Origin: a plasmid | Direction: 5' to 3' (one strand) | Assembly (NCBI RefSeq): GCF_988243305.1 | Contig: NZ_OZ547137.1 | DNA: 64,000 nucleotides | Part shown: positions 48,063 through 48,320 of the stretch, piece after piece | How the letters are laid out: each line of letters starts with the position of its first letter | How positions within the stretch are numbered: position 1 is the stretch's first letter | Translations under genes and position numbers: made by a program | The notes under the pieces: generated by a model | Seen by the model: only the letters and a program-made list of their open reading frames with translations | Told to the model about the DNA's origin: nothing | The model's database searches: none

Positions 48063-48240
48063 ATGACTAAAAATACTCGTTTTTCCCCCGAAGTCAGTCA
48101 TAGGGCGATTCGTATGGTTCTGGAAAGTCAGGGCGAATATGACTCACAATGGGCGGTAATTTGTTCCATTGCCCCAAAGATTGGCTGTACACCGGAGACT
48201 CTGCATGTCTGGGTACGCCAGCATGAGCGGGATCGAGTAG
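48063..48240 (+). pseudogene. IS629/IS1203-like OrfA, truncated
   Basis: [57 protein letters not shown], then diverges. Confidence 0.6.
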
Positions 48241-48320
48241 GAGGAGGGATAACTCCCGCCGTCCTCTCACACCACCGTACATGCGGCTCCGCATACGGCG
48301 GTTTATGTTAACACTGGAAG
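48240..48320 (-). mobile_element. Probable group II intron 3' remnant (domain V/VI-like hairpins)
   Basis: Minus strand CCGTATGCGGAGCCGCATGTACGG plus GGGAGTTATCCC hairpin resemble the DV/DVI region of the intron at 37208-37300. Confidence 0.35.

Follow-up and report, generated by a model that had tools for sequence, protein, structure and literature searches.

An 88-nt segment on the minus strand of a virulence plasmid of enteroaggregative E. coli is the dead 3′ tail (~90 bases) of a class C group II intron, retaining the end of the intron-encoded protein, domain V and domain VI, and it abuts the orfA gene of an IS629-like element in antisense orientation. A second remnant of the same lineage, reduced to 34 nt of domain VI, lies against an IS2-like fragment elsewhere in the window, by which we mean the whole 64,000-nt stretch of contig NZ_OZ547137.1 that was analysed. 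The window is part of a pAA-type plasmid; the region of the remnants has a near-identical counterpart in pE1246_1 (NZ_CP025574.1) and a close match in the plasmids of O104:H4 outbreak strains and of strain 55989, and is flanked on one side by aatPABC, the dispersin exporter genes, and on the other by the aap/aggR/agg5A cluster. The annotation of sister plasmids shows the segment from 46 to 58 kb to be pieced together from broken insertion sequences. The sister plasmids that were examined either leave the 88-nt and 34-nt remnants unannotated or absorb them into an "IS3 family transposase" pseudogene call, which extends 14 nt into the 48-kb intron remnant.

The initial annotation had described a second, truncated group II intron 3′ end next to the IS629-like orfA at 48236–48320, and had named a covariance-model scan as a check. 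That scan was positive: the minus strand of 48232–48303 matched the Rfam model of group II domains V and VI (RF00029) over its full length (model positions 1–77) with 47.2 bits (gathering score 40; E 3.7e-6 for the 64-kb window). The RNA was predicted to fold into one hairpin each for domains V and VI (minimum free energy −39.1 kcal/mol; z −4.3; 0 of 200 shuffles as good), with an A bulged seven bases from the end; the branch-point A and the ...AY terminus of a group II domain VI are both present. When the 91-nt stretch was compared with plasmids by BLAST in distant mode, full-length matches of 92–96% were obtained, all inside introns with an annotated ltrA. Two such intact introns, L002 from E. 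coli plasmid CP088459.1 and L003 from an E. fergusonii plasmid, each span 1918 nt, carry ltrA and are 99% identical to each other; the window matches them only over their last 91 nt, at 95.6% (95.6% over 91–92 nt and E about 7e-39 for the 3′ ends of intact introns), bearing out the description of a truncated intron end.

Alignment with the intact copies also sets the boundaries. L002 and L003 are differently flanked, and they part from each other and from the window directly after ...CCTACTCGAT; because the flanks diverge right after ...CTCGAT, the 3′ terminus of the intron (...CUCGAU in the RNA) is fixed at 48232. The remnant therefore occupies the coordinates given in the feature table, a refinement of the interval first proposed, and corresponds to positions of about 1830–1918 of the 1918-nt intron. 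Its last three bases (GAA, 48317–48319) are common to the adjoining IS66 sequence. Domains I–IV, the 5′ GUGYG end and an intact protein gene, as a complete intron would have, are all missing, and alignment across the 64-kb window found no further pieces of the L002-type intron or fragments of its reverse transcriptase beyond the second remnant described below.

Features of the window that bear on the two intron remnants (coordinates on the plus strand of the window)
Feature	Position	Strand	Basis or remark
Resident full-length class C group II intron, other lineage	37217..39081	−	Rfam, Pfam; directly after terminator-like hairpin (5′ exon)
Protein of the resident intron	37313–38665	−	Pfam RVT_1 and GIIM
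IS629-like (IS3-family) orfA 5′ fragment, 3′ exon of the intron	48056..48231	+ (antisense to intron)	Pfam HTH_Tnp_1; identity to 57629–57805
Class C (IIC) group II intron 3′ remnant	48232..48319	−	RF00029 47.2 bits, identity to L002/L003, fold
Domain VI of remnant	about 48234–48269	−	branch-point A at 48238
Domain V of remnant	about 48271–48302	−	
Last codons and stop of intron-encoded protein	48308–48319	−	within the 48232..48319 remnant
IS66-family tnpC tail and right terminal inverted repeat	48317..48429	+	Pfam DDE_Tnp_IS66_C, annotated tnpC ends
IS2-like (IS3-family) orfA/orfB junction fragment, 3′ exon of second remnant	56720..56838	+ (antisense to intron)	annotated homologue
Second remnant, L002-type lineage, domain VI only, 34 nt	56839..56872	−	3′ terminus 56839; branch-point A now G (56845)
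IS200C, 5′ part	56880..57215	+	Rfam STnc490; left end by alignment with two chromosomal copies; sister-plasmid annotation
Uninterrupted IS629-like orfA copy, empty insertion site between 57803 and 57804	57629..57873	+	

We assign the parent lineage of the remnants to class C because its protein is closest to IIC reverse transcriptases and lacks an endonuclease domain, its insertion sites follow hairpins, and a loop of domain I covaries with the 5′ exon. The L002-type protein (462 aa) contains only the Pfam domains RVT_1 and GIIM. Among solved structures it was closest to two IIC reverse transcriptases, the GsI-IIC RT 6AR1 (E 2e-141) and 7UIM (E 4e-108), compared with 3e-43 for the IIA protein LtrA and 4.5e-34 for a IIB protein. 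From the coordinates of intron and ltrA, the non-coding RNA amounts to about 530 nt, about 450 nt of it ahead of the protein-coding region. At all intact insertion sites examined (5 of 5), a strong terminator-like hairpin, often with a T-run, ended 5–11 nt before the intron (z −4.5 to −8.8). In four lineages, changes in the domain I loop (GGTGGC-loop-ATCACC) are matched by the last bases of the 5′ exon (AUA/UAU, ACAA/UUGU, CAA/UUG and CAU/AUG), and we take this loop to be the EBS1 of these introns, as a proposal from covariation. Insertion after a terminator-like hairpin, together with a short 5′ exon pairing, is the habit of class C introns (PMC3522654, PMC7306698). In its IIC-type protein, small RNA and hairpin sites the parent lineage resembles GsI-IIC of Geobacillus stearothermophilus and Di.ze.I1 and So.gl.I1 of Enterobacteriales. 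Unlike those known class C introns, what the window holds is an 88-nt tail and a 34-nt stub with neither catalytic nor coding capacity.

The window also harbours a full-length class C intron, and the initial annotation had described the hairpins at 48 kb as nearly identical to the domain V/VI region of that intron at 37208–37300. This did not hold beyond domain V: 48262–48303 aligned with 37248–37289 at 88% over 42 nt, and neither alignment nor BLAST matched domain VI or the protein-coding tail of the 48-kb remnant to the resident intron. Were the remnant a decayed or partial copy of the resident intron, this would account for the shared class, the likeness of domain V and the similar 3′ ends (...CCCGAU in the resident, ...CUCGAU in the remnant), and yet the resident intron and the parent lineage are about 57% identical in nucleotides overall and 49% in their proteins, whereas the remnant is about 96% identical to the different, L002-type lineage over its whole length. 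We therefore regard such a copy as very improbable; as a source of the remnants, the resident intron is refuted by the whole-intron identity and by the domain VI that does not align. The lesson is that likeness of domain V by itself is no proof that two introns are related copies. The resident intron scored 137 bits with the Rfam model D1D4-3, 54 bits with D1D4-1 and 38.7 bits with RF00029. Since the last of these scores (37217–37289) lies below the gathering score of 40, a default Rfam scan reports the dead fragment and misses the 3′ end of the intact-looking intron.

Among named introns of E. coli, E.c.I4 is documented as homing into IS629 and other IS3-like transposase genes. All its copies sit at specific positions in IS629, IS911, ISEc16 and ISEc31, and its fragments occur in large mobile elements (PMC3522654). 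Like the parent lineage, E.c.I4 is a group II intron found within IS3-family transposase genes that include IS629, so an origin of the 48-kb remnant from this IS629-homing intron would fit both the position and the documented fragments. We compared the sequences directly, taking E.c.I4 (from E. coli 55989), E.c.I9 and E.c.I3 (from strain 536) at the coordinates given in Table S3 of PMC3522654. No significant alignment linked the E.c.I4 copy of 55989 with the L002-type intron or with either remnant, and E.c.I4 also differs in length (2271 nt) and in its 3′ end (...CUCUACU), which leaves this origin with a negligible probability. E.c.I9 and E.c.I3 were rejected as sources as well, none of the three introns being related to the remnants or to the resident intron.

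A survey of Escherichia and Shigella recorded 111 group II intron fragments (55 of them distinct) in DNA rich in mobile elements (PMC3522654), and the window remnants fit this usual pattern. That survey dropped matches under 100 bp, and for strain 55989 its tables cover the chromosome and not the plasmid, so that remnants of 88 and 34 nt would have gone unrecorded there (PMC3522654). Our literature search found no paper that joins group II introns with enteroaggregative E. coli and its pAA plasmids.

The sequence downstream of the 48-kb remnant, its 3′ exon, is the 5′ part of an IS3-family orfA. The name IS629-like follows the initial annotation and the likeness of its OrfA sequence to that of IS629, and is provisional; membership in the IS3 family is indicated by the HTH_Tnp_1 domain (Pfam) and, in the other copy, by an ALIL pseudoknot at 57916–58014 (Rfam). 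PGAP annotates the orfA fragment in sister plasmids as an IS3-family transposase pseudogene. As had been noticed at first, the fragment loses its similarity to the copy at 57.6 kb where the intron begins: positions 48056–48233 and 57629–57805 are 96.6% identical, and the identity ceases at the intron terminus. The 57.6-kb copy thus preserves the empty insertion site. The orfA at 57636–57962, which had been called the intact counterpart, is itself frameshifted, with four T's compared with five in the 48-kb copy, leading to a stop after 31 codons. The sister-plasmid annotation shows a transposase gene at 57.6 kb that lacks its C-terminus and ends near 58047.

At the empty site, the antisense strand carries an 8-bp hairpin, then CCCGGTAT (...GGTAT), and then the insertion point. 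The GUAU at this site can pair over 4 bp with AUAC in the EBS1 loop of the L002-type intron, a pairing that uses the loop of relatives about 96% identical, the fragment's own EBS1 having been lost. A 45-nt stretch at the site forms two hairpins (z −3.2) with no T-run. In contrast to the norm for class C introns, the IS629-like site is a hairpin in the antisense strand of a gene and no genuine terminator; it is atypical for a IIC intron, the hairpin being weaker than those of genuine terminators and followed by no T-run.

The junction at 48231/48232 joins the terminal base of the intron to an internal position of the insertion sequence, about 215 bp from the left end of the latter, and from this we infer that the intron entered the IS and not the reverse. 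Transposition of the IS629-like element into an intron has a precedent in plasmid pHS30-1, but at the 48-kb junction it is the intron that contributes a terminus and the IS that contributes its interior, while the IS terminus lies elsewhere, at 46749; a reversed nesting is accordingly most improbable here. In pHS30-1 (NZ_CP029493.1, 268–3457), an IS3-family element with an IS629-like orfA interrupts the protein-coding region of an L002-type intron, whose coordinates on the two sides of the element overlap by 3 bases (1687–1689). The IS629-like copy at 48 kb is also split, its left end (46749–46798) being interrupted by IS3. This complete IS3 (46799–48055) sits in the left end of the element between 3-bp AAC duplications (46796–46798 and 48056–48058). 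The IS3/IS629-like junction occurs in no PLSDB plasmid and the IS3 is missing from the sister plasmids, and the IS3 copy appears to be specific to the present plasmid.

The initial annotation had further pointed to a related hairpin at about 56855 and connected it, like the hairpins at 48 kb, with the resident intron. The relationship stands, though with the 48-kb remnant and not with the resident intron: positions 56838–56872 and 48231–48265 are identical at 31 of 35 positions, and the second remnant matches domain VI of L002 at 32 of 34 (E 9e-9 within the window), with the match ending at the intron terminus. A chance or convergent GC-rich palindrome, for instance a terminator, shared by otherwise unrelated elements is the explanation that a hairpin of this kind invites, the copy at 56.8 kb being short (34 nt), mostly a single hairpin, and devoid of any intron match in the Rfam covariance-model scan, which returned only noise, as expected for a stub that lacks domain V. 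Against this, the 34-nt copy matches L002 in loop and tail bases besides the stem, the 48.2-kb copy matches over about 88 nt that include unpaired linkers and the coding tail, and both remnants cease matching at the last base of the intron. Similarity limited to a short palindrome had been named at the outset as what would overturn the finding; it was not what we observed, and we give this explanation practically no weight. With remnants of one lineage bordered by IS629-like and IS2-like exons, the original suggestion of repeated intron insertion and decay in this region was upheld.

The 3′ exon of the second remnant was recognized from its 75% nucleotide identity to an annotated IS3-family transposase gene, and its translation (...TMEVEILREAVEY...) matches the protein. 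Beyond this fragment lies an IS110-family transposase pseudogene. On the other side, the left end of a truncated IS200C (56880) lies 7 nt past the remnant. We considered IS200C as the cause of the second truncation and found this unsupported, as 7 nt intervene between the stub and the IS200C end. The second-remnant arrangement is present in 26 complete genomes. At two chromosomal loci, the same IS200C left end occurs just after hairpins immediately downstream of yfeX and pdxI. These hairpins look like the terminators of the two genes, and IS200C may likewise have used the intron stub as its hairpin target.

At its upstream end, the 48-kb remnant runs into the last roughly 110 bp of an IS66-family element, whose inverted repeat ends at 48429. 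The tnpC tail is 93–94% identical to the 3′ ends of annotated IS66-family tnpC genes and aligns with positions 21–39 of the 39 in Pfam DDE_Tnp_IS66_C, below threshold. Alignment with tnpC and with the intact intron places the crossover within the GAA common to both (48317–48319), where an internal position of the intron meets an internal position of tnpC. Since neither partner is at a terminus, the junction points to a deletion or illegitimate recombination and not to transposition. The shared GAA, at 3 nt, is too short to prove a mechanism and could be a coincidence. The known homing site of E.c.I3 in an IS66-family tnpC was rejected as an account of the junction, because it is situated some 110 nt upstream of the break and E.c.I3 is unrelated. 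The IS66-family tnpC tail occurs in two copies (48317–48374 and 48668–48725) that are 86% identical and 350 bp apart, and the second is preceded by an IS66-family orfA-like gene fragment (48454–48690).

Loss of the 5′ part could, though improbably, have coincided with insertion. During the mobility of group II introns, cDNA synthesis starts from the 3′ end of the intron, and incomplete reverse transcription could have left copies that were 5′-truncated from the moment of insertion, in a LINE-like manner; all three decayed copies known to us from this analysis (88 nt, 34 nt, and 208 nt in CP057297.1) keep only the 3′ end. However, upstream of the two cuts in the window lie the interior of an IS66-family tnpC in one case and 7 nt followed by IS200C in the other, and not the expected 5′ exons. 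This unrelated IS material means that at least one more rearrangement is needed anyway, and a full-length copy with the matching 5′ junction does exist (below). We thus consider truncation at insertion improbable and favor a later deletion. The copy in CP057297.1 (1984–2191) is a third 3′-only remnant of the L002-type lineage, 86% identical and with a degraded domain V.

We then asked how widely the two junctions occur. The 3′ junction was found in 45 complete genomes, in all of them on plasmids, and the sister plasmids examined were pAA-type; the intron/IS629-like/IS66 junctions are common to these 45 complete genomes, which include the O104:H4 outbreak lineage and strain 55989. For the 5′ junction we used a 140-nt query that combined the predicted 5′ exon with the first 70 nt of the L002 intron, and matches covering all of it (100%) at 97.1% identity were present in 167 complete E. 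coli genomes. In the one of these that was inspected (NZ_CP025913.1, chromosome, 3496–5496), 75 nt of IS629-like sequence in antisense orientation border directly on a full-length intron. This intron is 97.9% identical to L002, its reverse-transcriptase gene is split, and its 3′ flank is unrelated. The 167, of which this one was inspected, may represent a single inherited locus. No genome in the collections searched carried an intact intron with both junctions; the 3′ junction occurred there only in the truncated plasmid form, apart from one unrelated two-piece match. For this reason a single ancestral insertion is something we infer and do not observe directly.

Combined with the 3′ junctions, which are placed to the base, the unoccupied site and the complementary 5′ junction found elsewhere, these data lead us to the following history, which as a whole we hold to be highly probable. 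An L002-type class C intron would have reverse-spliced into the antisense strand of an IS629-like orfA and then been reverse-transcribed. Its target would have been a DNA hairpin, followed a few bases later by the GUAU that could pair with the AUAC of EBS1, an arrangement that resembles the usual IIC target. A later rearrangement probably deleted the 5′ exon and some 1.83 kb of intron sequence, so that at the 3-base microhomology the intron, cut near its position 1830, now borders on the interior of an IS66-family tnpC. The 88-base tail that was left, presumably inert, is fixed across the pAA plasmid family of enteroaggregative E. coli. An intron of this lineage would also have inserted into an IS2-like element, and that copy would have decayed further, to the 34-base domain VI stub.

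Elsewhere, on E. coli chromosomes and on further enterobacterial plasmids, the parent lineage still has intact members. Domains I–IV and the protein are missing from both remnants; the stem of domain VI contains a mismatch in one, and the branch point is gone from the other. Both are presumably inert fossils, and nothing in their sequences indicates a function. We regard them as ordinary mobile-element debris, the product of intron decay in an IS-rich region of a pAA plasmid. Their importance beyond annotation is small: they are new, unannotated remnants of a known kind of element. They also serve as stable markers of the assembly of the pAA virulence plasmid and add one case of a class C intron that used a non-terminator hairpin inside an insertion sequence.

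The L002-type lineage might repeatedly use antisense hairpins of IS3-family transposase genes as substitutes for terminators, riding on insertion sequences as the unrelated E.c.I4 does: the window records two independent insertions, IS629-like and IS2-like, both antisense in IS3-family genes, and the 167 genomes with the 5′ junction (one inspected) would add a full-length copy at the IS629-like site. The other intact copies examined nonetheless sit at ordinary terminator-like hairpins, and a single inherited locus would reduce the weight of the 167. We therefore find a repeated use of this kind doubtful, and keep to the narrower history of two insertions and their decay.

One last fragment completes the patchwork around the second remnant. 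In the stretch that separates the IS629-like element from the truncated IS200C, positions 57214–57583 of the window correspond to what is annotated in the sister plasmid as a fragment of a gene for a solute-binding protein of a Zn/Mn-family metal ABC transporter.
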